Origin: Escherichia phage vB_EcoM_CUA3
Sequence record: PP410321
Length of the DNA: 64,000 bases
Strand: one strand, 5' to 3'
The notes beneath the pieces were generated by a model. It had not been told where the DNA came from and ran no database searches. It saw nothing but the letters and a program-made list of their open reading frames with translations. A program made the translations under genes and the position numbers. How positions within the stretch are numbered: the stretch's first letter is position 1; each line of letters starts with the position of its first letter. Shown one piece after another: positions 6,651 to 63,692 of the stretch.

Positions 6651-7199
6651 TTAATTCAATACGTTAACCACTGCACTACGAGGTACTACGCTAAAATCAC
6701 CAGCATGAACAACGTTCAGAAGCTCAACACCATCTTCAACCCACTGGTCTGTTACCCATCCACAGATAGGATTATCAAAAGGACGGCGGATAGACACAGC
6801 ACGAGTTAGAAGGTCGGTAGGGCCTTGTTCTTCAACTTCTTGGAACAGGATGAACTCATCTTCATAAACCAGGTTTTTCTCTATTTTGTTATTATCTAAC
6901 CGGCGACCGTGGATGACGTAAGATTTGTCAAACCACTCACTTTTGGCAAATTCTTCAACAATAAATTCGCCTTCGCCAAAAACATCAGTCAGAGTTTTAT
7001 GGCCGGAAATCAAGGCATTAGTTTTAATTTCAGGTTCAACCAGTTTGTAGGTTTTTCCGATTTCGATAGTNNNNGTAGTCATAGTGGTTTCCTTAATTTC
7101 TAATGGTTCAATAGGGGCTACATAAGTGCTTAAAACATCAAAATCAATCAATTTGGCCGCCGGGTTCGGTGTGTATTTGGGATTATAATTAAATTTCAT
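6651..7199 (-). CDS. hypothetical protein, paralog of adjacent gene
   Basis: 182-aa ORF; C-terminus VTDQWVEDGVELLNVVHAGDFSVVP is paralogous to 6010..6621. Confidence 0.5.
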   Translation of the reverse strand: MKFNYNPKYTPNPAAKLIDFDVLSTYVAPIEPLEIKETTMTXXTIEIGKTYKLVEPEIKTNALISGHKTLTDVFGEGEFIVEEFAKSEWFDKSYVIHGRRLDNNKIEKNLVYEDEFILFQEVEEQGPTDLLTRAVSIRRPFDNPICGWVTDQWVEDGVELLNVVHAGDFSVVPRSAVVNVLN

Positions 7200-11062: not shown

Positions 11063-11101
11063 AATATTTTCTCATCTTACAGACGATTAGTTGATAGGTC
11101 T

Positions 11102-11130
11102 ATAGTATCATGTGGCTCGATAAAGTAAAC
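11102..11130 (-). promoter_or_regulatory. early-type promoter
   Basis: minus-sense GTTTAC, 17 nt, (TGa)TACTAT, then AGACCTATCAAC. Confidence 0.6.
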
Positions 11131-17458: not shown

Positions 17459-17702
17459 CGCAGTACAGAACATAGTTATACTGCATAACACCACTGGAAG
17501 CCAATTGGTCGGATACTTCTTTAACCATATCAGGACGGTCGCGTTTAGTGATGTTCATGATATCAGCATAAATCTGATGTTCAACTGATTCTTGGTCTGC
17601 AGTCATTGACCATTCACAAAGGTCTTTATCCAATCCGGCTGTAACTGGAGCCGTACCACATGATGCTACTGTAAGGATTGCTGCGATTAATAACTTTTTC
17701 AT
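17409..17702 (-). CDS. sp: Spackle periplasmic protein (superinfection exclusion, lysozyme inhibitor)
   Basis: true start MKKLLIAAILTVASCG (signal peptide, lipobox-like VASC); mature region DKDLCEWSMTADQ...VMQYNYVLYCD matches T4 Sp as recalled. Confidence 0.7.
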   Translation of the reverse strand: MKKLLIAAILTVASCGTAPVTAGLDKDLCEWSMTADQESVEHQIYADIMNITKRDRPDMVKEVSDQLASSGVMQYNYVLYCDANFDNKNIVKEVTGE

Positions 17703-17730
17703 TTTTAACTCCTCATTAGTTGATAGGTCT

Positions 17731-17760
17731 ATAGTATCACTACCATAGACCGATGTAAAC
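17731..17760 (-). promoter_or_regulatory. early-type promoter upstream of sp
   Basis: minus-sense GTTTAC, 18 nt, TACTAT, then AGACCTATCAAC; GGTCTAT/ATAGACC inverted repeat. Confidence 0.6.
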
Positions 17761-17761
17761 A

Positions 17762-18001
17762 CTATTTTAAAGAATCTTCTAAATAAATTTTACGGAATTT
17801 ACGTTTCGTCTGACGAATCTGACGTTTAGTAGGCTTCACAGGAAATTCGAAGAACTCTACGTATTCCTGTTCATAATCATTATGACCCACTGAAAGAACC
17901 AGTTCCCAGCTGCTTACGGTGCGTTGGATAAACATATTATGCTTACCAAAAGATTTATTCCAAAAAGAACTAGGAGTTGGCTTCATTAGTACAATATTCA
18001 T
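17762..18001 (-). CDS. hypothetical protein
   Basis: 79-aa ORF, ATG start. Confidence 0.4.
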   Translation of the reverse strand: MNIVLMKPTPSSFWNKSFGKHNMFIQRTVSSWELVLSVGHNDYEQEYVEFFEFPVKPTKRQIRQTKRKFRKIYLEDSLK

Positions 18002-18346: not shown

Positions 18347-18664
18347 TTAGATTTCCTCGCAGAAGGCCCATTCAGCATGATAAACCGTAGCGCCTTTAGT
18401 ATCATTTAAACAAACCACATCCACCGGAGCAATTACACGATAAAGACGAGGTTCTCCTCCCACTGAACGAGCAGCTCGTCCAGCATAAATCTTAGCCAAA
18501 CCGATGTCCTCAGTAAAGAATACACGATTCAGGTTTTTCTTACGACCAGTTTCAGACAGAACTCCTGTTTCCTCAGGAGGACAAAGCATATTACCAATAT
18601 TAGCAACACTACAACTTCCGTGATAATACACTTTATATTCTGCTTTACAGTCGATGGTTTCCAT
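18347..18664 (-). CDS. hypothetical protein with Arr-like ADP-ribosyltransferase signature
   Basis: about 105 aa from METID; YYHGSCSVANIGNML resembles the HGT motif region of rifampin ADP-ribosyltransferase Arr (H-Y-E class) as recalled; GGAGAA SD; no T4 counterpart at this position. Confidence 0.4.
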   Translation of the reverse strand: METIDCKAEYKVYYHGSCSVANIGNMLCPPEETGVLSETGRKKNLNRVFFTEDIGLAKIYAGRAARSVGGEPRLYRVIAPVDVVCLNDTKGATVYHAEWAFCEEI

Positions 18665-18688
18665 TTTATTCTCCAAGTTGATAGGTCT

Positions 18689-18717
18689 ATAATAACATAA
18701 CTAAAGGAGAAGTAAAC
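18689..18717 (-). promoter_or_regulatory. early-type promoter
   Basis: minus-sense GTTTAC, 17 nt, TGtTATTAT, then AGACCTATCAAC. Confidence 0.6.
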
Positions 18718-30054: not shown

Positions 30055-30417
30055 TTAATTACCAATGGTATACTTAGACAATAGTTCCCAGTCATTTTTC
30101 TGTTTAAAGGAAATGACACGGAAGTTATTGGTGATTTCGAACAATTCGGAATCGTCTACAATATCAATAAGTCCCCAATCCTTAAGAAGCTGGGCTATGG
30201 AATCACGGCGTTGGTAGTCTTCACCATCGATATCTACCTGGCGACCGTCCATACGCAACATCTCTTTAAAGTGGACAATATAATACCGTCCTTGCTTTTG
30301 CAAAATGTGACAGGATTGATATAATTTCTTTTCTTTATTATTAGCGATACCCATACGAGTCAGGGTCTCTTTCACTTTTAGGAAGTCTTCAGGTTGCTTC
30401 AGAGTAATTTCAATCAT
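30055..30417 (-). CDS. regA: RegA translational repressor
   Basis: 120-aa ORF; MIEITLKQPEDFLKVKETLTRMGIANN... collinear with T4 RegA. Confidence 0.9.
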   Translation of the reverse strand: MIEITLKQPEDFLKVKETLTRMGIANNKEKKLYQSCHILQKQGRYYIVHFKEMLRMDGRQVDIDGEDYQRRDSIAQLLKDWGLIDIVDDSELFEITNNFRVISFKQKNDWELLSKYTIGN

Positions 30418-38396: not shown

Positions 38397-38663
38397 TCAT
38401 TGTAGGAATCTGGCTCCTTCTAGTGCATCATCAAGATTATCAAACTCGTCAACGTAATCAATACCGCCGACCTCATCTTTAGCGTATAGCCAGTACTGTT
38501 TAAATTCATATTCGATAATAAAGTGGTCACCCTCAATCTGGAGAACCGCATCACTATTAAATTGAACTGCATAACCAGTAAAGCGAACATCATTCAGGAG
38601 TTCTTCTTTCATAGCAATCATTTCCAAGTTTTTATCGTAATTAGAGAGTTTTATTTTAATCAT
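38397..38663 (-). CDS. hypothetical protein
   Basis: 88-aa ORF. Confidence 0.4.
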   Translation of the reverse strand: MIKIKLSNYDKNLEMIAMKEELLNDVRFTGYAVQFNSDAVLQIEGDHFIIEYEFKQYWLYAKDEVGGIDYVDEFDNLDDALEGARFLQ

Positions 38664-38989
38664 TTCGCAGCCTTAACAATTTTAAGGTCAACGAATTTTT
38701 TCTTACGTTGATTCTTCATACGACGGATGGTTTTGTCTGTGATTTCACCTGGGTGCCAAGCTTTAGATTCGACACCAAAAGCGGCAACATCAAACTCATC
38801 AAGGATATATTGGACCAGGATTTCACGAATACCATTCTTACCGATTTTCTGGTCTTTAGAATGCATAATTGGTAACAGTTCAGCAACCCATTGGTCAAGA
38901 ACCTGAGGAGTTACAAAGCCAGTTTTCATCAGTTCGTTTACTTTATCGAAAGCGAAAGAGTTCAGTACGTTTTTAATAGCTTGTGACAT
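38660..38989 (-). CDS. hypothetical protein sharing its start module with 45642..46484
   Basis: true start MSQAIKNV with GAGGAAA SD; the first 5 codons and about 25 nt of 5'UTR are near-identical to the gene at 46484. Confidence 0.45.
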   Translation of the reverse strand: MSQAIKNVLNSFAFDKVNELMKTGFVTPQVLDQWVAELLPIMHSKDQKIGKNGIREILVQYILDEFDVAAFGVESKAWHPGEITDKTIRRMKNQRKKKFVDLKIVKAAK

Positions 38990-39029
38990 AATAATTTCCT
39001 CAGTTNNNNAATTTATAATCCGTAGGACC

Positions 39030-39059
39030 ATTATACTCCGGTCCCAAGAGTTTGTAAAC
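39030..39059 (-). promoter_or_regulatory. early-type promoter
   Basis: minus-sense GTTTAC, 18 nt, TATAAT; inverted repeat GGACC/GGTCC flanks the -10. Confidence 0.55.
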
Positions 39060-39259
39060 TATTTTTGTGCTAATGCACCTTTCCAACCTTCGTACATCGC
39101 CGCAGCCGATATTAATATTGCTCCTGCGCATTTTGAATATTTGTTATTCCAAAACCAGTTTAGAAAAACTTCGTCATCAATACCTTGGGCTATCATATTT
39201 TCAAAGAATTGACGACGGGCTTCAGCAACACGTTGTGATAATTTAGATTCAGGATTCAT
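39059..39259 (-). CDS. hypothetical protein
   Basis: 66-aa ORF, ATG start. Confidence 0.4.
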   Translation of the reverse strand: MNPESKLSQRVAEARRQFFENMIAQGIDDEVFLNWFWNNKYSKCAGAILISAAAMYEGWKGALAQK

Positions 39260-39391
39260 TTAAATTTTCCAGTTACCGTTTTCATCAATAAATTTAATCC
39301 AGTCATTTACTGACCACTTAGTCGTATCGCCTTTTGGAGCAACATTTAAAGTGTATAATCCTTGTTTAAAAAGCATACGTTTGATATTCAT
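39260..39391 (-). CDS. hypothetical small protein
   Basis: track ORF trimmed to the ATG (MNIKRMLFKQG) with GAGGAAAA SD. Confidence 0.3.
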   Translation of the reverse strand: MNIKRMLFKQGLYTLNVAPKGDTTKWSVNDWIKFIDENGNWKI

Positions 39392-39694
39392 ATTTTCCTC
39401 AGCTATAGTAATAACAGGTATTAGCTTTACGTTTGGCTGTTCGATGTGAAGTATTGTAATCCGGTTCGTCATCCATGTAAACATCTTTTTTCAGCTTTCT
39501 CACTTCNNNNNNNNNNNNNNNNNNNNNNNNNNNNNNNNNNNNNNNNNNNNNNNNNNNCATACGTTTCCATTTGTCTGAACGGAAGATATTTTCNNNNNNN
39601 NNNNNNNNNNNNNNNNNNNNNNNNNNNNNNNNNNNNNNNNNNNNNNNNNNNNNNNNNNNNNNNAATTCTTTACGACGGATAGTTTTACCCATAG

Positions 39695-39949
39695 TTACCT
39701 CAGCAGTTTGTATCCAATAAGATTTTTAATGTACTGGACATCTTTGACATCCAAATCCAACTTAATATCTTTCAGGCGTTCAGCCAGAGTAAGAAATGTT
39801 ACGCGTTTCCAATTCTTAACAGGACAGCAATACGTCTTAGGACCGTTGGCGATTTCAATATTTTTATCTGTGACGGTGAGAAAAACCAGACGCTCATCAT
39901 CAAGATTAAGGGTGATGACACTTTTGGTTGAATGTAGTTTCAGGCTCAT
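39695..39949 (-). CDS. hypothetical protein
   Basis: 84-aa ORF; AAGGAAA SD. Confidence 0.4.
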   Translation of the reverse strand: MSLKLHSTKSVITLNLDDERLVFLTVTDKNIEIANGPKTYCCPVKNWKRVTFLTLAERLKDIKLDLDVKDVQYIKNLIGYKLLR

Positions 39950-40122
39950 AATTCAATTTCCTTGGCTATCGAACAAAATATGGCGCGGTCACAAATCATT
40001 TTAATATTAAGTTCAATTATGGTATACCACACGTCCAGGCTAGATATTTCAGTTACTAGAACAGCTTTGCCGTTGATTGAATAATACTGGTCGGCTTTAA
40101 TTTCTTTATCTTGGATAGTCAT
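39946..40122 (-). CDS. hypothetical small protein
   Basis: 58-aa ORF below the track cutoff; GAGGAG SD; ATGA coupling to the downstream gene; promoter cassette upstream. Confidence 0.4.
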   Translation of the reverse strand: MTIQDKEIKADQYYSINGKAVLVTEISSLDVWYTIIELNIKMICDRAIFCSIAKEIEL

Positions 40123-40151
40123 AATGTTCTCCTCATGTGTTGATAGGATAG

Positions 40152-40180
40152 ACTATACCACGTGAGGAGAGGAAGTAAAC
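40152..40180 (-). promoter_or_regulatory. early-type promoter with SD-complementary spacer
   Basis: minus-sense GTTTAC, 17 nt, TGgTATAGT; spacer TCTCCTCACGTG pairs with 5'UTR CACATGAGGAGA (11 of 12). Confidence 0.6.
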
Positions 40181-40181
40181 A

Positions 40182-40499
40182 CTAATCTTCAATTAAATCT
40201 CGGTCATAACCAAGTTCAATCAAAAGTGCTTTAAAAGCAGGAATATTTTCTATTTTCTTATTATCAACAAAGATGACAGGATAGCGTATCGCTAAGCTCT
40301 TGAAGCCGGCCCGTTTGGCCAATGATACTATAAGAAGCTTGTCATATACTGCGCCTGACGGCGTCTGATTAATCACAGGATAGAAAGTATGTGGGATAGA
40401 AAGGGAATTTAGGAGCGATAGAACAGCAATGCACCCTGGACAGCGCATGACTGTCTCAGGGATACCGTAAATCTCAATTTTAGTTAACTTTTGGTCCAC
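40182..40499 (-). CDS. glutaredoxin/thioredoxin-like protein (CPGC active site)
   Basis: 105-aa ORF; KIEIYG...RCPGC redox motif; GTG start with AAGGAG SD. Confidence 0.5.
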   Translation of the reverse strand: MDQKLTKIEIYGIPETVMRCPGCIAVLSLLNSLSIPHTFYPVINQTPSGAVYDKLLIVSLAKRAGFKSLAIRYPVIFVDNKKIENIPAFKALLIELGYDRDLIED

Positions 40500-40776
40500 A
40501 GGAAATAACTCCTTGGTAGTCCCAAGTTTTTAGAACTTCGTCCTCATTAGTTCCATATGGAACGTAAATCTGGATAAGGAACCCGGTATCATCAAAAGAG
40601 AAGTAGACAGTAGGTTTAATACCATGAATCTCTGACAGAGCGTAGATGTCCTTGAGGTCGTCTTCCTTATCGACAAAGAATTCCGGGTTCAGGTCGCAGT
40701 CATGGAAGTACCAATCATCACCGAACTTGTCCCATGCGGTCCAATTCAAAGCTACATACTCTTCAAAACGTTTCAT
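40480..40776 (-). CDS. hypothetical protein
   Basis: 98-aa ORF; ATG with GAAGGTGA SD. Confidence 0.4.
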   Translation of the reverse strand: MKRFEEYVALNWTAWDKFGDDWYFHDCDLNPEFFVDKEDDLKDIYALSEIHGIKPTVYFSFDDTGFLIQIYVPYGTNEDEVLKTWDYQGVISCGPKVN

Positions 40777-40988
40777 TCTTTCACCTTCAGCATTTTTGCG
40801 ATAACACTATGAACAGACTGGATTCGTTTGTCGAACTCAGACCCTTCAAGACCCTTTTCAGTACTCAATGCGCCAATAATCATGAACAGCAATCCAAACG
40901 GAATAGCCAGGATTAAAAGGCATACGATAAACAGAACTAATGTAATATTGGCCAGGATATCAGAAACAGCATTACGAAATTTATTCAT
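40773..40988 (-). CDS. hypothetical membrane protein
   Basis: about 71 aa from MNKFRN; one to two predicted TM helices. Confidence 0.35.
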   Translation of the reverse strand: MNKFRNAVSDILANITLVLFIVCLLILAIPFGLLFMIIGALSTEKGLEGSEFDKRIQSVHSVIAKMLKVKE

Positions 40989-41094
40989 TAAAGAACCCAC
41001 ATGTTAGTTACAACAAATAACCATTGAGCTGGATACTCAACACCCATNNNNNNNNNNNNNNNNNNNNNNNNNNNNNNNNAGCCATAAAAATTAA

Positions 41095-41568
41095 TCATTT
41101 AAGCGATTTCCTCAGTTGTTTTTTAAATGAATCCACCATTTGTTTCTTAGTGGCAGATTCATTATAAGTCATTCCATGTGAAAGCATTTCAGCAATCATT
41201 TCTTCCTTACCCAACCTGCTGAACTCTTTGGTTTTATCAGGAACGAAATTAGGATGAATATTGTTTTCAGTATAATCGGTTTTCAGATAGACCAGCAAAT
41301 TCTCTAACCATTCGAGGTAGTCAACGTTTTGACCTTTCAAACCGGAACGGTTGAACTTATGCTTCATTTGTCCTTCTGCAGCATTGCACAGATTACATAG
41401 TAAACCACGAACCTTACCTGCTTTTGGCCCGTTCAATTCATGGTCGTGGTCAAGGTGGTTACTTTGAACATCAGGGTTTAATTCGCGCTTACAAATCAAA
41501 CACTTACCATGTTGTGCATCATAAAGTTTTTGTTTTTCTTCTTTGTATAATTTGCCACTCAGCAACAT
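41095..41568 (-). CDS. 49: endonuclease VII (Holliday junction resolvase)
   Basis: 157-aa ORF collinear with T4 endo VII (zinc-binding CLICKRELNP...HLDHDHELNGPKAGKVRGLLCNLCN). Confidence 0.9.
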   Translation of the reverse strand: MLLSGKLYKEEKQKLYDAQHGKCLICKRELNPDVQSNHLDHDHELNGPKAGKVRGLLCNLCNAAEGQMKHKFNRSGLKGQNVDYLEWLENLLVYLKTDYTENNIHPNFVPDKTKEFSRLGKEEMIAEMLSHGMTYNESATKKQMVDSFKKQLRKSLK

Positions 41569-41573
41569 AATAA

Positions 41574-41604
41574 ACCCTTACCATTATTAGATAAGGGTAT
41601 TTAT
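41574..41604 (-). promoter_or_regulatory. RBS-sequestering hairpin with late-promoter-like motif upstream of gene 49
   Basis: minus-sense TAATAAATA followed by ACCCTTA-(11 nt)-TAAGGGT then TTATT-ATG; the 3' arm contains the AAGGG SD. Confidence 0.4.
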
Positions 41605-42377
41605 TANNNNNNNNNNNNNNNATAGAACGAACGGTGCAACCGTTTAAATTGACGAATCATCTTTTTGGTAGGACGGGTATACAACCCTATACAAGTGGCC
41701 ATAAACTGGTCAGTAGGACTTCCTTTGATAAGAAGTTTCCAGACCTTGTCACCGTTAAACTTTTCGGTATANNNNNNNNNNNNNNNNNNNNNNNNNNNNN
41801 NNNNNNNNNNNNNNNNNNNNNNNNNNNNNNNNNNNNNNNNNNNNNNNNNNNNNNNNNNNNNNNNNNNNNNNNNNNNNNNNNNNNNNNNNNNNNNNNNNNN
41901 NNNNNNNNNNNNNNNNNNNNNNNNNNNNNNNNNNNNNNNNNNNNNNNNNNNNNNNNNNNNNNNNNNNNNNNNNNNNNNNNNNNNNNNNNNNNNNNNNNNN
42001 NNNNNNNNNNNNNNNNNNNNNNNNNNNNNNNNNNNNNNNNNNNNNNNNNNNNNNNNNNNNNNNNNNNNNNNNNNNNNNNNNNNTTCATCAGAACGCCTTA
42101 TCAGCAAAGCGAAGTTGAGCTTCAAGCCAATGGATATAATCAGCTGCAGCNNNNNNNNNNNNNNNNNNNNNNNNNNNNNNNNNNNNNNNNNNNNNNNNNT
42201 CGTAAAGTGAATGTTCAATCAGACGGCCTTTATGTCGGCCAACTTCAATTTTGGTACTCATATCCAAACTCCATATCGATTAAATCATTGTTTGAAGGTT
42301 CATTATACTCTATTTCGGAATCGTTGTAAACCGGTTCCTCTGGCTCGGTAGTTTCCCACCGAGCGACATACCATGGC

Positions 42378-42686
42378 TTAACGGTCACACCACCAACTAC
42401 TTACTTCAAAATCAGGCTCGCCGTTTTCCCAATACCAAGGGCCAACTGGATGCCAATCGCCATGTTCATCTTCTTCAAATTCTTCAGATTCAAGCCCAAC
42501 GTATTGCCATTGGACTTCATAAGCGGTGCCACCGATTACAACAGTGTTCTCGCCATATGGATGGGCTACAGCAAAGTCTATACCTTCTGCTTTGGCTAAC
42601 CAAACCATATATTCGTATAGCTTATATTCCAGGTCATCTTCGGTGCCATCACCTAGAAAAATGGTTTGTTCGTTTAATTCAATCAT
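42378..42686 (-). CDS. hypothetical acidic protein
   Basis: 102-aa ORF; ATGA coupling with the nrdC stop. Confidence 0.4.
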   Translation of the reverse strand: MIELNEQTIFLGDGTEDDLEYKLYEYMVWLAKAEGIDFAVAHPYGENTVVIGGTAYEVQWQYVGLESEEFEEDEHGDWHPVGPWYWENGEPDFEVSSWWCDR

Positions 42687-42946
42687 TTGAAATACGCTCG
42701 CAGTTGGTCAAACCCACCGATAGAAGTTCCGTCCGGAGCAAATACCTGAGGCATGGTCAAACCTACTTGAGATTCACGACCAAGAGCAGCCAGGAGTTCA
42801 GCAATCTTCTCATCATCAAATACGCCTTTTTCCGGCATCACGTTAATGAATTCGTAAGGTTGTTTCTTAACATCAAGCAGACGTTTGGCATTATCACAGA
42901 AAACACAACGGTGAATATTTGAATCGTAACCATAAACTTTAAACAT
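42683..42946 (-). CDS. nrdC: thioredoxin/glutaredoxin
   Basis: 87-aa ORF collinear with T4 NrdC (MFKVYGYDSNIHRCVFCDNAK...). Confidence 0.85.
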   Translation of the reverse strand: MFKVYGYDSNIHRCVFCDNAKRLLDVKKQPYEFINVMPEKGVFDDEKIAELLAALGRESQVGLTMPQVFAPDGTSIGGFDQLRAYFK

Positions 42947-43388
42947 TTTAAATTCCTAATACTTGTTTGAATGCCTCAGAACGGTCAAGTTCTGTTCCAT
43001 ATTTTTCCATGTGCTCATATTTTAAATCATACACATCAGATAGTATATTATTATACGAGCGAGTTAAAGCAGATTTCAATACCGAATAACTGTCCGGGAA
43101 TTTACCGTGCTCTTTATAATAAGCTAGAGTAAGTTCGCGGACTGCCTTATCGGCAGCCTCTACATATTCTTTACGCTTTGCCATTTTCAACTCTATCAAA
43201 TTTATGTTTACAATGGCGACATTTNNNNNNNNNNNNNNNNNNNNNNNNNNNNNNNNNNNNNNNNNNNNNNNNNNNNNNNNNNNNNNNNNNNNNNNNNNNN
43301 NNNNNNNNNNNNNNNNNNNNNNNNNNNNNNNNNNNNNNNNNNNNNNNNNNNNNNNNNNNNNNNNCAATATCTTCAGCTAAACGTTGTT

Positions 43389-44399
43389 TCATTTCAACAG
43401 CTCCAGAGCTTGTTCAAGACGGTCTAAACGATTGGTAGACTCTTCCCAAAGTTTCTTGGCGGCAGTATATTGACCGGTAAGTTTTTTGTTAATAGCAAGG
43501 GCATCTTTATACGCTTTTTCCAAAGCAACTATTTCTGGCAACTTAGATTTAGTAATTGGCGTAGGAGCCATGATAGGGCTATTCAAGTCATTAATCAAGT
43601 CTTCTAATGTAGCAGGCTCTTTATCAATGTTCACAATTTCCTCACATTTTTCTTGGTAAATTTCGGCATCAGTTTTTGGAACACGGCATTTGATTTCACG
43701 GACTGTTACTAAGACCTCATATCCTTTCCAGCCTAAGTGGTGTTTAACTTCTTGGGTCTCATATTTCTCTACTGTATCCATCAGAGCTAAAGCTTGTTCG
43801 ATAGTATTCAAGGTATCATAAGCAATATCTTGATACTTTACAACTTCCGCGTCATCTTTAGGTTTCCTATTAGGTGACCAAATAACAGAAATAATTGCTT
43901 TTCCTTTATAACTATTTGTTTTAATCATGCAATTCGCCATAGGGTGAATAGTACGGGAACCACCGGAAACTATGGTTTTAGAGGCCGCTTTGAGAATTAA
44001 TGCAGAGTTAGCCTTGAATTCGGTAACCCAACGTTGTGGAAATAAACTACTAGGGTCCATACCTTTAATTTTGATATAACTTTTTATGGTATCACCAAAC
44101 CATTTGTAGCTAACAGCATGGCTAGAACCCGGATATTTCTCTTTACCGAACTCAGAAAGGATGTCCTTATTGACCAGTCGCGAAAGCAGTCGAGAACCTT
44201 TAAATGTATTTACGATATCAGGAATAAACAAGCGACCCGCGATCTTTTCGATTTCGGCTTTGAAACAGCGCGATAATGCATCATCAATTTGGTCGACCCA
44301 TTTATTGATATTAGAAACTATTACCACATATGGGGTTAATGGAGGGGTGTTGGCAGTGATATACGTAGTAAAGGCATTGATGTATTCAGTACGAGTCAT
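43389..44399 (-). CDS. hypothetical protein
   Basis: track ORF trimmed to the ATG (MTRTEY) with GAGGAG SD downstream of a promoter cassette; about 336 aa. Confidence 0.45.
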   Translation of the reverse strand: MTRTEYINAFTTYITANTPPLTPYVVIVSNINKWVDQIDDALSRCFKAEIEKIAGRLFIPDIVNTFKGSRLLSRLVNKDILSEFGKEKYPGSSHAVSYKWFGDTIKSYIKIKGMDPSSLFPQRWVTEFKANSALILKAASKTIVSGGSRTIHPMANCMIKTNSYKGKAIISVIWSPNRKPKDDAEVVKYQDIAYDTLNTIEQALALMDTVEKYETQEVKHHLGWKGYEVLVTVREIKCRVPKTDAEIYQEKCEEIVNIDKEPATLEDLINDLNSPIMAPTPITKSKLPEIVALEKAYKDALAINKKLTGQYTAAKKLWEESTNRLDRLEQALELLK

Positions 44400-44427
44400 G
44401 ATATTCTCCTCANNAGTTGATAGAAAG

Positions 44428-44457
44428 ATTATACTCCATCCATCCTTGGATGTAAAC
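44428..44457 (-). promoter_or_regulatory. early-type promoter
   Basis: minus-sense GTTTAC, 18 nt, TATAAT, then CTTTCTATCAAC. Confidence 0.55.
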
Positions 44458-44458
44458 A

Positions 44459-45364
44459 TTATTTTAGAGCTAATACTGCGGCGCGGAGCTTGTCACGCTG
44501 GAGTTCCATGTTCTTGATGCGAATCAATACGTCTTGAATACTCTTTTTCTCATCTTCGATCTGACCGTTTAAACGGTGGATTGATTCCTGGAGGTGGTCC
44601 TCATGATACTTCTCGATAGGTTTCATCGTAGGGTTAGTAACCACCATAGAATTATCAGGTGTAATTTTCCAATGATACGGTTTGGAATTGAATGGACTAG
44701 GCACCGCGGTGGTTTTGAATTTGTCATAGGCTGCATATTGGCCTACGCTATCACATGATACCGCAGAGGTAGAGATAGAGATACGTCGTTCCATTTGTGG
44801 GTCCTTTTGTTGGGATTGATAAGGGGCATAAGACAAAAGATATTCGCGAGTTAGTTTAACTCTGATATAAACTGCATCAGCTCGCCCAGAACAATCAGCA
44901 TATTCATCGGTTGTAACTTTATATGATTCTACTGCCTTAATACGAGTCATTGCTTCCCTGAATAAGGTTTCGAATGCTTCACGAAGGGCCTTATTGCCTT
45001 TTGAGGTGGGACGGAAACGAACTTGGATACCGTCAGGCAGAATATTAATGACTAGGTTACGAGCCGTAAAATTAATATTCTTGATATTAACAGGAACAGT
45101 AGCAATGCGTCCTGCAGTAGCCAAGAGGTCTTTGATATTAGCTCGCAATGTTGCACCAAACAGTTGGGCTGGGCTACGGCAATAGTCATTCAAAGAGCTG
45201 ATGTAAGTTCCTTTACGGCCTACACCATAAGTATAATTACCATTACAAATATGGCCAAAGTCTGCCAGCCGATCGATAGCGATACGACGTGTGGTATCAA
45301 AATCATATCGGGAATATTCTTTACGTGTTTTAATGTTCATATTAAAGTCCAAATAATTTTTCAT
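44459..45364 (-). CDS. hypothetical protein (start uncertain)
   Basis: about 300-aa ORF; track start is TTG; candidate ATG starts at 45364 or 45340. Confidence 0.4.
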   Translation of the reverse strand: MKNYLDFNMNIKTRKEYSRYDFDTTRRIAIDRLADFGHICNGNYTYGVGRKGTYISSLNDYCRSPAQLFGATLRANIKDLLATAGRIATVPVNIKNINFTARNLVINILPDGIQVRFRPTSKGNKALREAFETLFREAMTRIKAVESYKVTTDEYADCSGRADAVYIRVKLTREYLLSYAPYQSQQKDPQMERRISISTSAVSCDSVGQYAAYDKFKTTAVPSPFNSKPYHWKITPDNSMVVTNPTMKPIEKYHEDHLQESIHRLNGQIEDEKKSIQDVLIRIKNMELQRDKLRAAVLALK

Positions 45365-45557
45365 AGAATTTAGCAATAGGCCANNNNAAACANATCATAA
45401 NNNNNNCNAAGCAAAACAGAGGCCATACTAGTGTAATGAATACTGCATCATAGCTTGATTCAATTTCGATTGGATTCCAATCACCTGATTTATGAATGAT
45501 AAAGGTCGTCACGAATCCTAGCACAAAGTAAAGGAGAATAAAACCTACAATTTCCAT
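45342..45557 (-). CDS. hypothetical membrane protein
   Basis: 71-aa ORF with N-terminal TM helix. Confidence 0.4.
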   Translation of the reverse strand: MEIVGFILLYFVLGFVTTFIIHKSGDWNPIEIESSYDAVFITLVWPLFCXXXXMXCXXWPIAKFYEKLFGL

Positions 45558-45641
45558 ATTAACCTATAATGTTTGAGAAAATTAGCCACAGAACACCCGT
45601 GGCCACGATTACATATCCAAGAACGGCGAGCCATTCCATAA

Positions 45642-46484
45642 TTAATCCTTAAGAAGATTTAGGATATCGATATATTTTTGACGTTCAGCCTTAGCTTTAG
45701 CATTCAGACCAGAGAGTCGGAAAATCTCATCATCTTGTTGTTGGATTGTAACATTCAAGCAAGTAAGCAAATTGCTAAAATACTCGATTTGAGATTGATG
45801 CTTCTCATTGCTGCGCACTGGTACAGGTTCCGGTTTAGGAGCTTCTGAATGCTCTTNNNNNNNNNNNNNNNNNNNNNNNNNNNNNNNNNNNNNNNNNNNN
45901 NNNNNNNNNNNNNNNNNNNNNNNNNNNNNNNNNNNNNGTTCTAGTTCAGACAAAGCCAATCGAAGATGGAATTTCCAGTTGTCATATTGACAACCACTAA
46001 AAGTTGAAGTAAGATACTCGTTTTCGTTACCTGGTTGGTTGACAATATTAAAGATAATCCAATCGCCTGAACCATTAGTCTTAAATGGCATTTGCTTATC
46101 TTGACCTTTTGCAAGGCGAGCACCCAGTGCTAGTAAACGACGTTGGTTAGTACGAAGGTCTTTAACAACTTCATCAAATGACATCGCCGGGATTAAACGA
46201 CCGTAGAGGTCATAGCCTTTGTTATAATTTCTAAGAATAATTCTGGCGTTAGCACGAGTCAACATACCTGTCCTGTGAAGAGATTTCATGACTCGGTCTT
46301 CTAACGTAAACAAACCTTTAGTCTTGTCAAAGATTTTAGTGAATTCATCTNNNACAGTACAAACTTCAAACTTTTCCCACATCATNNNNNNNACCTTTTC
46401 AACCACTTCTTTATNNNTCGGAATACGACCAAATTTAATAACTTTTTTAACTTCAGAACGAATTTGATTAATTGCTTGTGACAT
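45642..46484 (-). CDS. hypothetical protein sharing its start module with 38660..38989
   Basis: 280-aa ORF starting MSQAINQ; upstream ACTGAGGAAATTATTATGTCACAAGC is shared with the gene at 38989. Confidence 0.45.
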   Translation of the reverse strand: MSQAINQIRSEVKKVIKFGRIPXXKEVVEKXXXMMWEKFEVCTXXDEFTKIFDKTKGLFTLEDRVMKSLHRTGMLTRANARIILRNYNKGYDLYGRLIPAMSFDEVVKDLRTNQRRLLALGARLAKGQDKQMPFKTNGSGDWIIFNIVNQPGNENEYLTSTFSGCQYDNWKFHLRLALSELEXXXXXXXXXXXXXXXXXXXXXXXXXXXXEHSEAPKPEPVPVRSNEKHQSQIEYFSNLLTCLNVTIQQQDDEIFRLSGLNAKAKAERQKYIDILNLLKD

Positions 46485-46521
46485 AATAATTTCCTCAGTA
46501 AGTAATTAAGAACCTAGAACC

Positions 46522-46546
46522 ATTATACCATCCTTGGTATAAAGCG
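46522..46546 (-). promoter_or_regulatory. middle-type (MotA-box-like) promoter
   Basis: minus-sense GCTTTA, 12 nt, TATAAT. Confidence 0.45.
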
Positions 46547-46547
46547 T

Positions 46548-47072
46548 TTATGCGAGAACCGTCTTTAAACGCTCTTCAAATTTCTGAAGCAGAGCTTGGC
46601 GTTCAGCTCGTTGTGATTTGTACTGCTCGATACGACCTGAAGTGAGGGCGTACTGTTCGTTTACTGATTCCCGCATAAATTCAGGAATCTCTTTACAAGC
46701 TTTGATTTCGTCAAACTTATCAATAACCGCTTGTTCCTCGGCAATCAGATTATCGAAATAAGCGATATCCGATTTAACGTTTGCCAGGTCAGATTCAGTA
46801 GGCATTAAACGTTTGTTACGTTCAGCTTGATAAGCCTGGTTGGTTTCACGACTCCAGTGGAGAGTACGTTTTTTGTTAGTGTTTTTATAGAGCTCTACAA
46901 TACCAACTGAATCGATGATAGCAATCCAGTTCCAACGGCTTTTGTAAATCTCTCCTCCAGATACGGTAATCTCATTACCACAAGCAACGTCGTTAAAGAA
47001 CTTGCTTTGTTTTTCAGATTTGAAATTACCGTTGTTAAAATTAATCAGTGAAAAAATATCTTTAGCGTTCAT
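46548..47072 (-). CDS. hypothetical protein
   Basis: 174-aa ORF; promoter cassette upstream. Confidence 0.45.
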   Translation of the reverse strand: MNAKDIFSLINFNNGNFKSEKQSKFFNDVACGNEITVSGGEIYKSRWNWIAIIDSVGIVELYKNTNKKRTLHWSRETNQAYQAERNKRLMPTESDLANVKSDIAYFDNLIAEEQAVIDKFDEIKACKEIPEFMRESVNEQYALTSGRIEQYKSQRAERQALLQKFEERLKTVLA

Positions 47073-47098
47073 GATAACCTCCAGTAGTTGATAGGTCT

Positions 47099-47127
47099 AT
47101 AGTATCATTTCTACTGGAGATGTAAAC
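47099..47127 (-). promoter_or_regulatory. early-type promoter with SD-complementary spacer
   Basis: minus-sense GTTTAC, 17 nt, TGaTACTAT; spacer CTCCAGTAG pairs with 5'UTR CTACTGGAG. Confidence 0.6.
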
Positions 47128-51469: not shown

Positions 51470-51920
51470 TATGCTTTCAACTCATTAAGATACTCAACCA
51501 AGGCTGCTTTAGAGTTAGCCAAATCCCGTTTACACTGCTCTATTCCGGAATACGAATAGCCTTCGCAATATTCAACAGCTAGGTCATTGGATGCGTTTTC
51601 AATGTGCTGGGCGAGTTTGATAATTTTCTCAATCTGTTCAGTAGTTAACATAANNNNNNNNNNNNNNNNNNNNNNNNNNNNNNNNNNNNNNNNNNNNNNN
51701 NNNNNNNNNNNNNNNNNNNNNNNNNNNNNNNNNNNNNNNNNNNNNNNNNNNNNNNNNNNNNNNNNNNNNNNNNNNNNNNNNNNNNNNNNNNNNNNNNNNN
51801 NNNNNNNNNNNNNNNNNNNNNNNNNNNNNNNNNNNNNNNNNNNNNNNNNNNNNNNNNNNNNNNNNNNNNNNNNNNNNNNNNNNNNNNNNNNNACTNTTCT
51901 CCTCATTAGTTGATAGGTCT

Positions 51921-51949
51921 ATAGTATCACGTTCCTAGAGGATGTAAAC
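51921..51949 (-). promoter_or_regulatory. early-type promoter
   Basis: minus-sense GTTTAC, 17 nt, TGaTACTAT, then AGACCTATCAACTAATGAGGAG. Confidence 0.6.
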
Positions 51950-56015: not shown

Positions 56016-56043
56016 TTTGTAATCTCCTGTAGTTGATAGGTCT

Positions 56044-56072
56044 ATAGTACCACGCCTACAGGAGATGTAAAC
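56044..56072 (-). promoter_or_regulatory. early-type promoter with SD-complementary spacer (regB)
   Basis: minus-sense GTTTAC, 17 nt, TGgTACTAT; spacer ATCTCCTGTAGG pairs with 5'UTR CTACAGGAGAT. Confidence 0.6.
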
Positions 56073-57886: not shown

Positions 57887-58303
57887 TTAAGCGTAAATAG
57901 CCTTACCATAATGTTTGTACCAGGTAGGGCGTTGTGCAATTTTTTCATCCAAACGGGCTTGTGAAATAGCGATAGAAGCTTCGTGAGGAACATAATCACC
58001 ACGGAATTCCTGAGGAATGTCGCTAATATCCTGGACCGTAGTATCCTTGATATTAAAACCACGTTTTAAACATTCGGCTATAAGCTCAATTTGGCGTTTA
58101 CGTAAGAACTCTAGCTTATCGTAAAAGAACGTAACATGACCTGTGCCAAGGATAAAAGTAGGACTGATTTTGAAATCACGAACACGTTTACCATTAGCCA
58201 CATGCTTACGAACTGCACCGAAAACACGGGGTAATTCACGATATTCGGCCATAAGATGTTGGTCAGCCAATTCAGATACTAAGGTAAGGTTGATACGAGT
58301 CAT
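57887..58303 (-). CDS. denV: endonuclease V (pyrimidine-dimer DNA glycosylase/AP lyase)
   Basis: 138-aa ORF, near-collinear with T4 DenV ([26 protein letters not shown]...). Confidence 0.9.
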
Positions 58304-58305
58304 TT

Positions 58306-58758
58306 TTAATCTCCTGTAGTTGATAGGTTTATAGTATCATGCCTACAGGAGATGTAAACNNNNNNNNNNNNNNNNNNNNNNNNNNNNNNNNNNNNNNNNN
58401 NNNNNNNNNNNNNNNNNNNNNNNNNNNNNNNNNNNNNNNNNNNNNNNNNNNNNNNNNNNNNNNNNNNNNNNNNNNNNNNNNNNNNNNNNNNNNNNNNNNN
58501 NNNNNNNNNNNNNNNNNNNNNNNNNNNNNNNNNNNNNNNNNNNNNNNNNNNNNNNNNNNNNNNNNNNNNNNNNNNNNNNNNNNNNNNNNNNNNNNNNNNN
58601 NNNNNNNNNNNNNNNNNNNNNNNNNNNNNNNNNNNNNNNNNNNNNNNNNNNNNNNNNNNNNNNNNNNNNNNNNNNNNNNNNNNNNNNNNNNNNNNNNNNN
58701 NNNNNNNNNNNNNNNNNNNNNNNNNNNNNNNNNNNNNAAATTCATTGTAAGTTTTCAT
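58306..58758 (-). CDS. internal-protein-like gene (capsid-targeting N-terminus; body N-masked)
   Basis: starts MKTYNEF; the rest is masked; position between denV and lysozyme as T4 ipII/ipIII. Confidence 0.45.
58331..58359 (-). promoter_or_regulatory. early-type promoter with SD-complementary spacer (denV)
   Basis: minus-sense GTTTAC, 17 nt, TGaTACTAT; spacer ATCTCCTGTAGG pairs with 5'UTR CTACAGGAGAT. Confidence 0.6.
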
Positions 58759-59480
58759 NNNNNNNNNNNNNNNNNNNNNNNNNNNNNNNNNNNNNNNNNN
58801 NNNNNNNNNNNNNNNNNNNNNNNNNNNNNNNNNNNNNNNNNNNNNNNNNNNNNNNNNNNNNNNNNNNNNNNNNNNNNNNNNNNNNNNNNNNNNNNNNNNN
58901 NNNNNNNNNNNNNNNNNNNNNNNNNNNNNNNNNNNNNNNNNNNNNNNNNNNNNNNNNNNNNNNNNNNNNNNNNNNNNNNNNNNNNNNNNNNNNNNNNNNN
59001 NNNNNNNNNNNNNNNNNNNNNNNNNNNNNNNNNNNNNNNNNNNNNNNNNNNNNNNNNNNNNNNNNNNNNNNNNNNNNNNNNNNNNNNNNNNNNNNNNNNN
59101 NNNNNNNNNNNNNNNNNNNNNNNNNNNNNNNNNNNNNNNNNNNNNNNNNNNNNNNNNNNNNNNNNNNNNNNNNNNNNNNNNNNNNNNNNNNNNNNNNNNN
59201 NNNNNNNNNNNNNNNNNNNNNNNNNNNNNNNNNNNNNNNNNNNNNNNNNNNNNNNNNNNNNNNNNNNNNNNNNNNNNNNNNNNNNNNNNNNNNNNNNNNN
59301 NNNNNNNNNNNNNNNNNNNNNNNNNNNNNNNNNNNNNNNNNNNNNNNNNNNNNNNNNNNNNNNNNNNNNNNNNNNNNNNNNNNNNNNNNNNNNNNNNNNN
59401 NNNNNNNNNNNNNNNNNNNNNNNNNNNNNNNNNNNNNNNNNNNNNNNNNNNNNNNNNNNNNNAGGAGATGTAAACNNNTT

Positions 59481-61263: not shown

Positions 61264-61949
61264 TACCAGCCCTCCATAGGAAATTCCAGATATACTTGAG
61301 CATTAACGCGGATTTCATTAGTAATCTTTTTAACACGGTCTGTATTACGAGACACACGACCAAACCAACGCCAACCATTACTTACTGCACGGGAACCTGT
61401 ATGCCATGTCTGCCAATCGAACTGGAGCAACGTGCGGTCAGGAGCATCCCACTTGGTTAATTCATTAGACTCAATTTTTTCCAGAACTTCTTTATGCCAC
61501 TGGCGATAGATAAGTTCGCCTTCAGGAATCTGACTGAACTGTGCAGTTCCGGTTGCAAAATGAGTAGGACACACATCAGCGTTAACAAGACCAAGAATAT
61601 GTTCAGAATGGTATCGAGGATTATCATAATCAGGTTGCCCTGCGGTAATAAAGTGTTGACCTACCGGAATATCCGGGCGTGGTACATCATCATGGTGGAA
61701 GCCTGGAATTGCAGGGTACCAACCGGGCATTAACATGTGTACACGGGAATCAAATACAANNNNNNNNNNNNNNNNNNNNNNNNNNNNNNNNNNNNNNNNN
61801 NNNNNNNNNNNNNNNNNNNNNNNNNNNNNNNNNNNNNNNNNNNNNNNNNNNNNNNNNNNNNNNNNNNNNNNNNNNNNNNNNNNNNNNNNNNNNNNNNNNN
61901 NNNNNNNNNNNNNNNNAGCTTTAGAATTAAAAGTTTTTGGACCGTTCAT
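61263..61949 (-). CDS. hypothetical protein (N-terminal part masked)
   Basis: 228-aa track ORF. Confidence 0.35.
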   Translation of the reverse strand: MNGPKTFNSKAXXXXXXXXXXXXXXXXXXXXXXXXXXXXXXXXXXXXXXXXXXXXXXXXXXXXXVFDSRVHMLMPGWYPAIPGFHHDDVPRPDIPVGQHFITAGQPDYDNPRYHSEHILGLVNADVCPTHFATGTAQFSQIPEGELIYRQWHKEVLEKIESNELTKWDAPDRTLLQFDWQTWHTGSRAVSNGWRWFGRVSRNTDRVKKITNEIRVNAQVYLEFPMEGW

Positions 61950-61963
61950 AATATTTTCCTCAC

Positions 61964-62188
61964 TTACTTTTTGTTGAAAAAGTACATTTTACCTTTAGGG
62001 GATAAGGATACACGAAGTGCGTTACCAATACCAACTGAACATTTAACCAGGTCAGCAGATTTCAATTCACCAAATGCTTGACGAAGGTCACCGTCACGAG
62101 TGTTAACCATCAGGCATTTAGCACCAGCTGCACGAACTTCGTTTAACATGTTGATTGCTTGGTTAGAAAGTTTCATTTTATTCTCCAT
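61964..62188 (-). CDS. hypothetical protein
   Basis: track ORF trimmed to MENKMKLS, downstream of the promoter cassette that the longer ORF would span. Confidence 0.4.
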   Translation of the reverse strand: MENKMKLSNQAINMLNEVRAAGAKCLMVNTRDGDLRQAFGELKSADLVKCSVGIGNALRVSLSPKGKMYFFNKK

Positions 62189-62213
62189 TTCACTCTGTTG
62201 TTTTGATAGGTCT

Positions 62214-62242
62214 ATAGTATCACACCTATAGACCTTGTACAC
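62214..62242 (-). promoter_or_regulatory. early-type promoter variant
   Basis: minus-sense GTGTAC, 17 nt, TGaTACTAT; perfect 9-bp inverted repeat GGTCTATAG/CTATAGACC around the -10. Confidence 0.5.
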
Positions 62243-62254
62243 TGTTTTATGCAA

Positions 62255-63214
62255 TTATTTTTCGAAAGGGCGAATTAAATGATGGTTATCTTGGAACCGC
62301 TTGATGTAGTCTTCNNNACCTAACGTCTTATACATATTCACTACAGCTTGGTAGTTTTCCCAGGCATACTCACGGAACCACCCGGAAGTAATTGAGGTGC
62401 ACACTTTCTCAAGAGCNNNNNNNNNNNNNNNNNATGGTGAAATATTAAAGTCATTAGGAACCTGCGAACGTTCTAGTGCCAACACACAGGTTTCTTCATA
62501 TACACCAGCTAGTTTAATAGCTTCAGGCAAAGCTTCAAACTTCTCACGAGAGGTCATGACTTCAGAACCATCTTTCATATAAAAGGTATATGCAGGGCGG
62601 CCTGCCAATGCCACGGCTTCATGAATAGAGTCATGGTCCAGCGTATAAATGGTATCGTTAAAGAATGACGATTTATTAACATCCAATTTAGGATGAGAAT
62701 AGCTCAACGTTTCTTTCTGACGTTGCAGCATGATTTCTTGGAGCTCTTCGTTCAAGGTTACACCTTTATTACGAAGGTATTTGATGTGAGACATCGTCTT
62801 CAGAAAGAACGGGTTGTTCTTCAAATAACGATGGCTCATTTTGATGGCCAGACAGATATCAGGAGTAGCCCAATAGAAACCTGTAAGACGGTCTTTCTTA
62901 ATATGGTTTTCAGCATATTTCAAGAGACGATAGCTTGAAGTGAAATCCTCATCTTGAAGTTCGCCAGTAATTTCACGGACATTAGTCAGAGCACGAACGA
63001 TATAAGCTTCAAAATAGGTTTCTTTACCATTGTGCATGCATTTAAAGGCCTGGACATCAGGGTTGTCTACATGTACATGGGCGCCGAACATCCGAGCTTT
63101 AAATTGATTCCATGACCCCTGGTCGGCAATAAAATCCCAATCAGAATTTTCGATATATTTACTTTCAATCAAACCAGCGTGGTGCAGTGCACGAGAACCA
63201 ATAACTAGCATCAT
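62255..63214 (-). CDS. hypothetical protein
   Basis: 319-aa ORF; ATG with GAGGAAAA SD. Confidence 0.45.
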   Translation of the reverse strand: MMLVIGSRALHHAGLIESKYIENSDWDFIADQGSWNQFKARMFGAHVHVDNPDVQAFKCMHNGKETYFEAYIVRALTNVREITGELQDEDFTSSYRLLKYAENHIKKDRLTGFYWATPDICLAIKMSHRYLKNNPFFLKTMSHIKYLRNKGVTLNEELQEIMLQRQKETLSYSHPKLDVNKSSFFNDTIYTLDHDSIHEAVALAGRPAYTFYMKDGSEVMTSREKFEALPEAIKLAGVYEETCVLALERSQVPNDFNISPXXXXXXALEKVCTSITSGWFREYAWENYQAVVNMYKTLGXEDYIKRFQDNHHLIRPFEK

Positions 63215-63241
63215 AATATTTTCCTCATTAATAAAGACGAG

Positions 63242-63394
63242 TTACTTCATATTTACCCAGTTCAGATTTTTTGCTTCAATACGCGTTGCGGCTAGATTAG
63301 CAGCCTCTAGTGAAGAAAATTGGACCACTTGGGAAGTATTCTGCCTTACGCCACCTTGTGGGTGAGTAACAAAAACAATAAGAACATTATACAT
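63242..63394 (-). CDS. hypothetical small protein
   Basis: 50-aa ORF below the track cutoff with GAGGAAAA SD. Confidence 0.3.
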   Translation of the reverse strand: MYNVLIVFVTHPQGGVRQNTSQVVQFSSLEAANLAATRIEAKNLNWVNMK

Positions 63395-63415
63395 AATATT
63401 TTCCTCAGAGTAAAC

Positions 63416-63664
63416 TTAAATTTCAGCAACGTAATCGTTATGCAATTCCCACATATCATCAGAATTATTCTTAATGATAGGAATTATCTCATTAGAGATT
63501 TCTTCTGCATAAGGGTCATTGATACAGTGAGCATCTTCAAAACGAACACCGTAATCAGACTTCTTATAGGCAAAGCCATAAATCTTTTTAAACTTGGCAC
63601 GACTAATGCGCACCGGCTCATCAGACTTATCAGACTTATCAGACAGTGGAGAGTAATACCACAT
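63416..63664 (-). CDS. hypothetical protein
   Basis: 82-aa ORF; GAGGAG SD; promoter-like motif upstream. Confidence 0.4.
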   Translation of the reverse strand: MWYYSPLSDKSDKSDEPVRISRAKFKKIYGFAYKKSDYGVRFEDAHCINDPYAEEISNEIIPIIKNNSDDMWELHNDYVAEI

Positions 63665-63692
63665 AATGTTCTCCTCATGTTTGTGTAAGGTA

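Follow-up and report, generated by a model that had tools for sequence, protein, structure and literature searches.

In a 64,000-nt stretch of DNA from Escherichia phage vB_EcoM_CUA3 (sequence record PP410321), hereafter the window, genes 55.2 and nrdC.6 share an almost identical translation start, running from the Shine-Dalgarno (SD) sequence to the fifth or sixth codon, even though their proteins are unrelated. We propose, with a probability of roughly 0.55, that a short patch of ectopic recombination or conversion at the 3' end of cassettes of the promoter-early stem-loop (PeSL) and promoter-middle stem-loop (PmSL) type explains the shared starts. A recombinational origin is the best reading because the near-identity of the two translation starts exceeds what constraint and chance together account for.

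A shared translation start in two unrelated genes

The 26-mer ACTGAGGAAATTATTATGTCACAAGC is found exactly twice in the window, at 38979-39004 and 46474-46499, both on the minus strand, and no further copy is seen there even when up to three mismatches are allowed (0 expected from 100 shuffles). The first copy (A) lies at the start of gene 55.2 (38660..38989, minus strand, 109 aa), which belongs to Pfam DUF7570 and phrog_1475, and the second (B) lies at the start of nrdC.6 (45642..46484, minus strand, 280 aa), which has no Pfam match and belongs to phrog_2257, of unknown function. In T4, gp55.2 is an inhibitor of topoisomerase I that is toxic when over-produced (PMC4396842). The first-pass annotation of this DNA had placed both open reading frames (ORFs) at these positions, each beginning with MSQAI, and had noted about 26 nt in common across the SD and the first codons followed by complete divergence; all of this holds.

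Including a single mismatch (GCT/GCA), the match extends to 32 nt, with 31 of 32 positions identical between copy A (38973..39004, minus strand) and copy B (46468..46499, minus strand). The patch contains the SD sequence GAGG, an 8-nt A/T spacer, the ATG, codons 2-5, which encode S Q A I, and the first two bases of codon 6. The two copies have the same orientation, B being 7,495 bp upstream of A. By length, the 26-mer ranks second among the exact repeats of the window; the longer repeat and most of the others come from a family of early-promoter cassettes or are further ribosome-site modules.

The window is of the Dhakavirus type and is collinear with phage JS10, a T4-like phage of the JS10/JS98 type whose annotation coordinates are also those of the window. 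The 8.9 kb around the two genes match Dhakavirus genomes (JS10, JS98, IME08, and others) at 90-93%, masked bases counted. Runs of masked N are found at 39006-39009, directly abutting copy A, at 45858-45937, and at many other places, and the JS10 sequence was used to bridge them; base differences between the window and JS10 are scattered, e.g. G for A at 39039 within a hairpin. By these differences the window is not the JS10 record itself; it is either closely related to JS10 or an altered version of it.

We compared the 264 annotated starts of JS10, aligned at the start codon from -18 to +18, in all 34,716 pairs. The pair formed by 55.2 and nrdC.6 is at the top of this ranking, with 31 of 36 identical positions (mean 13.6, standard deviation 3.0), followed by pairs with 29 (an internal-protein leader pair), 28, 27, and 27. 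As a null, alignment columns were permuted among the 35 genes that carry GAGG in the identical register, which keeps the position-specific composition; the best pair then averages 25.8, and 31 or more is reached in 0 of 5000 trials. This null is conservative, because the pair itself contributes to it. A window-only estimate based on rough start calls points the same way (5150 pairs, maximum 71%). The genome-wide ranking and the register-matched null were used in place of z-scores from the pairwise distribution, which overstate significance because the tail is heavy. Given the top rank and a null that never reached 31, we conclude that the starts of 55.2 and nrdC.6 are not independent of each other.

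Taken singly, neither half of the match stands out, be it the 15 identical nt of the leader or the 13 identical bases of 14 in the coding part. Their conjunction, in contrast, has a frequency of about 1e-3 by a rough empirical estimate (9 identical-leader pairs multiplied by 4/34,716 pentapeptide pairs). This conjunction at the extreme of the ranking, the permuted sets that kept both composition and SD register, and the extension of the identity to synonymous positions all argue against the possibility that the two genes converged independently on an optimal ribosome site and similar first codons, with no transfer of DNA.

The refuting possibility named in the first-pass annotation was a true paralog family, in which the shared N-terminal coding segment is inherited from one ancestral gene. 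Residues 1-5 are identical and residues 6-8 are similar (K/N, N/Q, V/I), and similar starts are present in T4-like relatives, as paralogy would predict. Nevertheless, BLASTP yields no alignment between the two proteins, and a profile-profile comparison with hhalign (9-member 55.2 alignment against 5-member nrdC.6 alignment) gives a probability of 0.9% with the N-termini unpaired. The proteins have unequal lengths, belong to different Pfam and PHROG families, and diverge from residue 6, and the DNA beyond +17 is not significantly similar (P 0.20). A continuation of DNA homology past +17 by way of a 4-nt indel (CGTWCTGAA) was also considered and rejected as not significant. At the available sensitivity paralogy is thus refuted, and we regard it as extremely improbable; on all of these comparisons the two proteins are unrelated. 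For annotation, the lesson is that genes of these phages with identical starts need not be paralogues.

Separate promoter ancestry of the two genes

Upstream of the patch, the two genes have different regulatory regions. Gene 55.2 is preceded by an early-type promoter (39030..39059, minus strand; GTTTAC(A), 17-nt spacer, TATAAT), whose TTTACA-17-TATAAT matches the T-even early consensus TTTACW...N17...TAYWAT at 11 of 12 positions and whose first G is the final base of the 55.3 stop codon TAG (39059-39061). An 8-bp hairpin (39023..39046, minus strand; UGGGACCR / UGGUCCUA) surrounds its -10 element. The promoter of nrdC.6 is instead of the Mot (middle) type (46522..46546, minus strand), with CGCTTTA, one mismatch away from TGCTTTA, 12 nt before TATAAT; the spacing rule applied here draws on the PeSL literature. 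It is accompanied by a 9-bp hairpin, AGCGTTTA...TAAACGCT (46543..46573, minus strand), that spans the nrdC.8 stop codon (46548-46550) and overlaps the Mot box, and by a second hairpin of 7 bp that overlaps the -10 element. The motA and asiA genes are encoded in JS10. The difference in -35 elements described in the first-pass annotation is therefore real, as GTTTAC(A)-17-TATAAT precedes 55.2 and CGCTTTA-12-TATAAT precedes nrdC.6.

The same annotation had read the two loci as copies of one module, i.e. a mobile cassette of promoter, 5' untranslated region, and start codon grafted onto two coding bodies, with the loci as recombination junctions. Some observations fit such a graft: both loci have the PeSL/PmSL layout (upstream stop, stem-loop, promoter, SD, ATG), a gapped local alignment from the -10 element to about +30 scores 77 against 19 in shuffles, and the part from the -10 element through the leader alone gives P 0.004 against mononucleotide shuffles. 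However, the promoters are of unlike class (sigma-70/early versus Mot box), and only 3 of the 10 bases just upstream of the -10 element match. The flank reported as TATAATGGTyCTA is indeed present at both loci, but it is a genome-wide promoter motif (TATAATGG..CTA) and not specific to this pair: 15 sites with at most two mismatches are found where 4.5 are expected, and 13 of the 15 are on the transcribed strand. Both TATAATGGTCCTA and TATAATGGTTCTA are found in the window, and its early-promoter family reads TA(C/T)TATAGACCTA at this flank. Between the -10 element and the SD, the leaders of 55.2 and nrdC.6 are not significantly similar (P 0.08), and each resembles the leaders of its own orthologues (P 0.14-0.23) no less than that of the other gene. 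An upstream extension of the homology through the leader to the -10 element was accordingly rejected.

The hairpin and Mot-type promoter of nrdC.6 are almost identical in Gaprivervirus (VR20/25/26) and in the Mosigvirus PhAPEC2, where the nrdC.6 proteins are only 71% and 36% identical, respectively. The hairpin of 55.2 is kept in position in nearly every T4-like genus sampled, with completely different stems that suggest covariation (GGGACC/GGTCC, GGGAGC/GCTCTC, GGGGTCAT/ATGACCC, GAGGAC/GTCCTC, and ATAGAGAT/ATCTCTAT). Depending on the genus, the promoter within its loop is of the early type or of the Mot type (TTTGCTATA...), and in several genera the leader GGATAATAAAATTTTAA comes after the hairpin; in the T4-like phage RB14, a terminator-like hairpin (AAGGGC/GCCCTT) occupies the locus with no promoter. 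A shared promoter is rejected on the orthologous loci of Gapriver-, Mosig-, Tequatro-, Marfa-, Winkler-, Moon-, and Muldoonvirus, and the comparison indicates that each promoter was inherited with its own gene. As promoter and hairpin stay with their own gene across genera, the grafted cassette is largely refuted, and we consider it very unlikely. Because the orthologue comparison gives each gene its own cassette, what the two loci share is a unit of only about 26-32 nt, from the SD to codon 5 or 6, and not promoter, untranslated region, and start together.

Both genes are located in the hyperplastic, early/middle-transcribed region from gene 55 to nrdC.11, and the small ORFs 55.1-55.8 make up the surroundings of 55.2. 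The window also carries 8-10 PeSL-like early-promoter cassettes (GTTTAC...GATACTATAGACCTATCAACTA...GGAG) on the minus strand, which are the source of most of its long exact repeats. Copies lie at 11074-11130, 17703-17759, 18661-18717, 47071-47127 (directly upstream of nrdC.8), 51893-51949, 56016-56072, 58303-58359, and 62186-62242, all on the minus strand. Two of the three that were folded (47071-47127 and 56016-56072) form an 11-bp inverted repeat whose loop contains the -10 element and whose 3' arm contains the SD (z about -3.4), while the hairpin of the third (17690-17762) leaves the SD free. Read-through transcripts would hide the ribosome site in hairpins of the first kind, and transcripts started internally would expose it. 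The cassette of 55.2 is not a close member of this family; it shares only the stretch from SD to codon 5 with nrdC.6 and a leader 18-mer with arn.4. Elsewhere in the window, motB and motB.1 contain a direct repeat of 59 nt with 75% identity and a 20-nt exact core (6080-6138 and 6709-6767), which suggests that these adjacent genes are diverged paralogues.

Age, polarity, and origin of the shared start

The 55.2 genes of Marfavirus, Winklervirus, Moonvirus, Muldoonvirus, and many T4-like contigs from IMG/VR all start with MSQAIKNVLNSF, and the synonymous codons used vary among them (TCA/TCT/TCC/TCG, CAA/CAG, GCT/GCA, ATT/ATC). Their leaders are of the type ACTGAGGAAA(A/T)T..T, e.g. ACTGAGGAAATTAAT and ACTGAGGAAAATACT. 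As this start is kept across genera while synonymous codons vary, the shared sequence is ancestral to 55.2 and has been under selection in that gene at the level of the protein. The 55.2 starts of T4-like phages (MTIQIKN), Mosigvirus (MSTKIKN), and Gaprivervirus (MTASITN) are, on the same comparison, derived variants.

In nrdC.6, the start MSQAIN is found only in Dhaka- and Gaprivervirus; Tequatrovirus relatives have MSVVINN or MSVAINN, and Mosigvirus has MSITSDA(I/V)K. The coding resemblance between MS.AIN and MSQAIK is thus older than the split of these genera (Tequatrovirus/Dhakavirus). From position +4 to +24, starts of T4-type nrdC.6 and of 55.2 type match at 12-13 of 21 positions (null mean 6.2). 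Compared from -18 to +18 within single genomes, the two starts agree at 31 of 36 positions in Dhakavirus, at 21 in Gaprivervirus, at 18 in Mosigvirus, and at 16 in T4-like phages, and Gaprivervirus nrdC.6 matches ancestral-type 55.2 starts at 26-28 of 36 positions. The spacer reads ATTATT, a derived form, in both Dhakavirus genes and AATACT, AATAAT, or ATAGTT in relatives of either, and Dhakavirus nrdC.6 has ACT where Gaprivervirus reads ATT. The exact identity, including the 15-nt leader, is specific to Dhakavirus. The opposite polarity, with nrdC.6 as donor, had been drawn from Gaprivervirus, T4, and Mosigvirus only and was overturned by the more distant 55.2 orthologues. The simplest account would be that nrdC.6 received a start of 55.2 type on one or more occasions, with the match renewed or completed within the lineage of Dhakavirus. 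The recombination junction proposed in the first-pass annotation thus survives in part: a recombinational origin of the start-codon patch is the best reading, given the excess over constraint and chance, but the event is not simply recent, given the ancestral 55.2 start and the old MS.AIN of nrdC.6.

Among Dhakaviruses, the 5' block of nrdC.6 (-250 to +50) is 100% identical, and from about +51 (near 46434 in the window) the body drops to 70-80% at a sharp mosaic boundary. Because the fully identical block gives way in this manner, the comparison indicates recombination around the nrdC.6 cassette, in the pattern expected of a recombination anchor. Between nrdC.6 of this genome and that of Gaprivervirus, conserved islands are seen at -99 to -55 (promoter/hairpin) and at +6 to +35, with a diverged leader between them. 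A degenerate scan of IMG/VR for a third gene family with this start returned only 55.2 orthologues, the nrdC.6 genes of Dhaka- and Gaprivervirus, and one unrelated ORF of 141 aa, which is about the estimated rate of chance matches.

In the conversion we propose, the patch would originally be that of 55.2 and would now sit at the 3' end of two otherwise unlike regulatory cassettes. The nrdC.6 gene would have acquired the 55.2 start, or been made to match it again, through ectopic recombination over a short tract (gene conversion or templated repair), presumably starting from microhomology that was already present, with CTGAGGAAA at the left and ATTAA at the right. In each gene the patch would serve as translation start and be transcribed from the gene's own promoter. 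The conversion mechanism itself, its tract, its timing, and a choice between strand invasion and template switching are matters that we infer from comparison. If this account is correct, exchange at T4-type regulatory cassettes can extend beyond the start codon, so that an unrelated gene has its first codons rewritten, providing a small-scale route to changes at the N-terminus and in translational control.

Several points weigh against conversion. The evidence is comparative, and recombination is seen only indirectly, as mosaicism around the nrdC.6 cassette. The tail of pair identities is heavy (62, 32, 12, 6, 2, 1, and 1 pairs at 23-29), and a simple extrapolation of it allows about 0.1-0.2 pairs at 31 or more, although this tail may itself hold related starts. 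A common first pentapeptide is found in four gene pairs of JS10 and is not rare by itself. The step specific to Dhakavirus depends on three leader positions only, which is thin, and the Tequatrovirus-like nrdC.6 reads ATG TCA GTA GCA ATT AAT, one codon off the Dhakavirus state. The leader half is near the phage consensus for a strong ribosome site and is found at arn.4 as well: the 18-mer ACTGAGGAAATTATTATG also heads this unrelated gene, right after the motA stop (JS10 164575-164592, minus strand, outside the window). Because of this near-consensus and the identical 18-mer, the leader identity alone could arise from constraint, and the leader half may simply be a favoured ribosome site. The arn.4 leader, the one-codon gap to Tequatrovirus-like nrdC.6, and the heavy tail are the reasons for keeping the probability of conversion at about 0.55.

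Several of the same points favor constraint and chance acting together. Sites of the type GAGGAAA(A/T)TA(A/T)TATG are common, with eight in the window within two mismatches of GAGGAAATTATTATG; the 18-mer leader with its ATG recurs at arn.4, the ribosome-site type TGAGGAAAATATTATG recurs three to four times, and four pairs in the genome share a pentapeptide. In addition, the MS.AIN start of nrdC.6 is old, and CTGAGGAAAT is already present in the Mosigvirus gene. In view of the ranking and the permuted sets described above, we consider this explanation unlikely, while giving it real weight.

The arn.4 gene also holds ACAAGCT at a 1-nt offset and the 11-mer GTTAATGAACT that is present in 55.2. 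The coding-only alignment is not significant (P 0.06), hhalign gives a probability of 0.3%, and the arn.4 protein is unrelated to those of both 55.2 and nrdC.6. On these grounds arn.4 was rejected both as another full copy of the patch and as a paralogue of 55.2, and it counts as a third carrier of the leader only. Other ribosome-site modules are likewise shared exactly by unrelated genes, none of them reaching into coding sequence: ACATGAGGAGAACATTATG (19 nt) heads 55.6 and the gene at 63664 (40120-40138 and 63662-63680), and TGAGGAAAATATTATG(A) (16-17 nt) heads three genes (61946-61962, 63211-63227, and 63392-63407).

Selection for a common regulator is another way of keeping two starts identical, instead of or besides recombination, and RegA, or another factor that binds the start, is the candidate. 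According to the review PMC3014915, RegA operators are A+U-rich and unstructured, overlap or abut the AUG, and have a 5' A-tract, and the consensus from in vitro selection (SELEX) with T4 RegA is AAAAUUGUUAUGUAA. The shared start region fits this description, and its sequence GAAAUUAUUAUGUCA matches the consensus, which is that of T4, at 12 of 15 positions. By this score, 55.2 and nrdC.6 rank first among the 122 SD-bearing starts of the window and joint first among the 264 JS10 starts, and regA itself is encoded in the window (30055-30417, minus strand). Tight translational control of 55.2 is plausible because gp55.2 is toxic when over-expressed (PMC4396842). The patch may therefore be a putative RegA operator, which we offer as a lead only. 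Against co-regulation, the argument is drawn from sequence, RegA sites are degenerate, the known classical targets, genes 44 and 45, score lower (9/15), and the two hits amount to one sequence counted twice. Moreover, RegA sites do not require codons 2-5, so that the coding identity is left unexplained, and neither 55.2 nor nrdC.6 is among the RegA targets named in the consulted passages of PMC3014915. We thus regard co-regulation as rather unlikely. A RegB site was rejected, as the SD is GAGG and not the GGAG that RegB is described to cleave (PMC3014915).

A combination of both ideas, which we judge to be quite unlikely, is that the patch is a portable translation-control cassette composed of a ribosome site resembling a RegA operator, the AUG, and a ramp of five fixed codons. 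Short-tract conversion would copy it among early and middle genes that are unrelated (55.2, nrdC.6, and partly arn.4) and place them under one post-transcriptional regulator whatever their promoter class. Such a patch, if real, would be the translational counterpart of the PeSL promoter cassettes, and, if conversion is correct, the pair would be a natural test case for RegA control carried between genes by patches.

Comparison with known phage systems

PeSLs are regulatory cassettes of T4-type phages (Arbiol et al. 2010, PMC2839356; Comeau et al. 2014, PMC4122927), in which crossovers were mapped between the -10 element and the ATG (Arbiol et al., PMC2839356), and PmSLs are variants described for vibriophage nt-1 (Comeau et al. 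2014, PMC4122927). Judged by structure, the region upstream of 55.2 is of the PeSL type: it is intergenic, begins at the 55.3 stop codon in a hyperplastic region of small ORFs, has an early sigma-70-like promoter with a 17-nt spacer and a hairpin enclosing the -10 element, and ends with GAGG, 8 nt, and ATG at its 3' extremity. On the same grounds, the region upstream of nrdC.6 is of the PmSL type, with the Mot box CGCTTTA 12 nt before TATAAT, a stem-loop ahead, and SD and ATG after. However, the nrdC.6 cassette occurs in a coliphage genus, is strongly conserved across three genera, and resembles a stable gene-specific promoter more than a visibly mobile unit. The pair also differs from PeSLs in several respects. 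PeSLs end at the start codon, whereas the identity of this pair continues for 14-17 nt of coding sequence and yields the same pentapeptide; the identity is limited to the stretch from SD to codon 5, without promoter or stem-loop; and the partner cassette is Mot-type, with no indel or mini-circle documented for the pair.

The leaders of the internal-protein (IP) genes of T-even phages (Repoila et al. 1994, as cited in PMC2839356) are the nearest precedent for identity that crosses the start codon. In both cases regulatory sequence and first codons are common to otherwise dissimilar genes, and a recombination anchor is placed there. In JS10, ipIII and its neighbour (58360-58758 and 58800-59396, minus strand), which both begin MKTY..., have the second most similar starts, with 29/36. 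The IP leader is a capsid-targeting peptide of about ten residues that ends in a prohead-protease site, (L/I)-x-E. The shared peptide of 55.2 and nrdC.6 is MSQAI only, with no (L/I)xE inside. Whereas IP leaders are functional targeting and cleavage peptides of tandem genes of related role, here five residues with no evident peptide function are shared by functionally unrelated genes 7.5 kb apart.

For the mechanism, ectopic short-tract conversion, or templated mutagenesis, between imperfect repeats was reportedly described in phage T4 by Schultz and Drake (Genetics, 2008). The likeness lies in clustered multi-base changes that match an imperfect repeat, in a phage with recombination-dependent replication. 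In contrast, the documented repeats are intragenic or a few hundred bases apart, whereas here the distance is 7.5 kb and the event is deduced comparatively.

The pair is not described in PMC2839356, PMC4122927, or PMC4396842, the nrdC.6 literature not having been searched. Measured against the PeSL description, what sets the pair apart is an identity that is confined to the stretch from SD to codon 5 and that crosses the start codon. By comparison within its genome, the 55.2/nrdC.6 pair is the most extreme shared start, and its proposed origin is mechanistically plausible. The finding fits the established picture of PeSL/PmSL plasticity without changing it, and would not surprise a T4 specialist.

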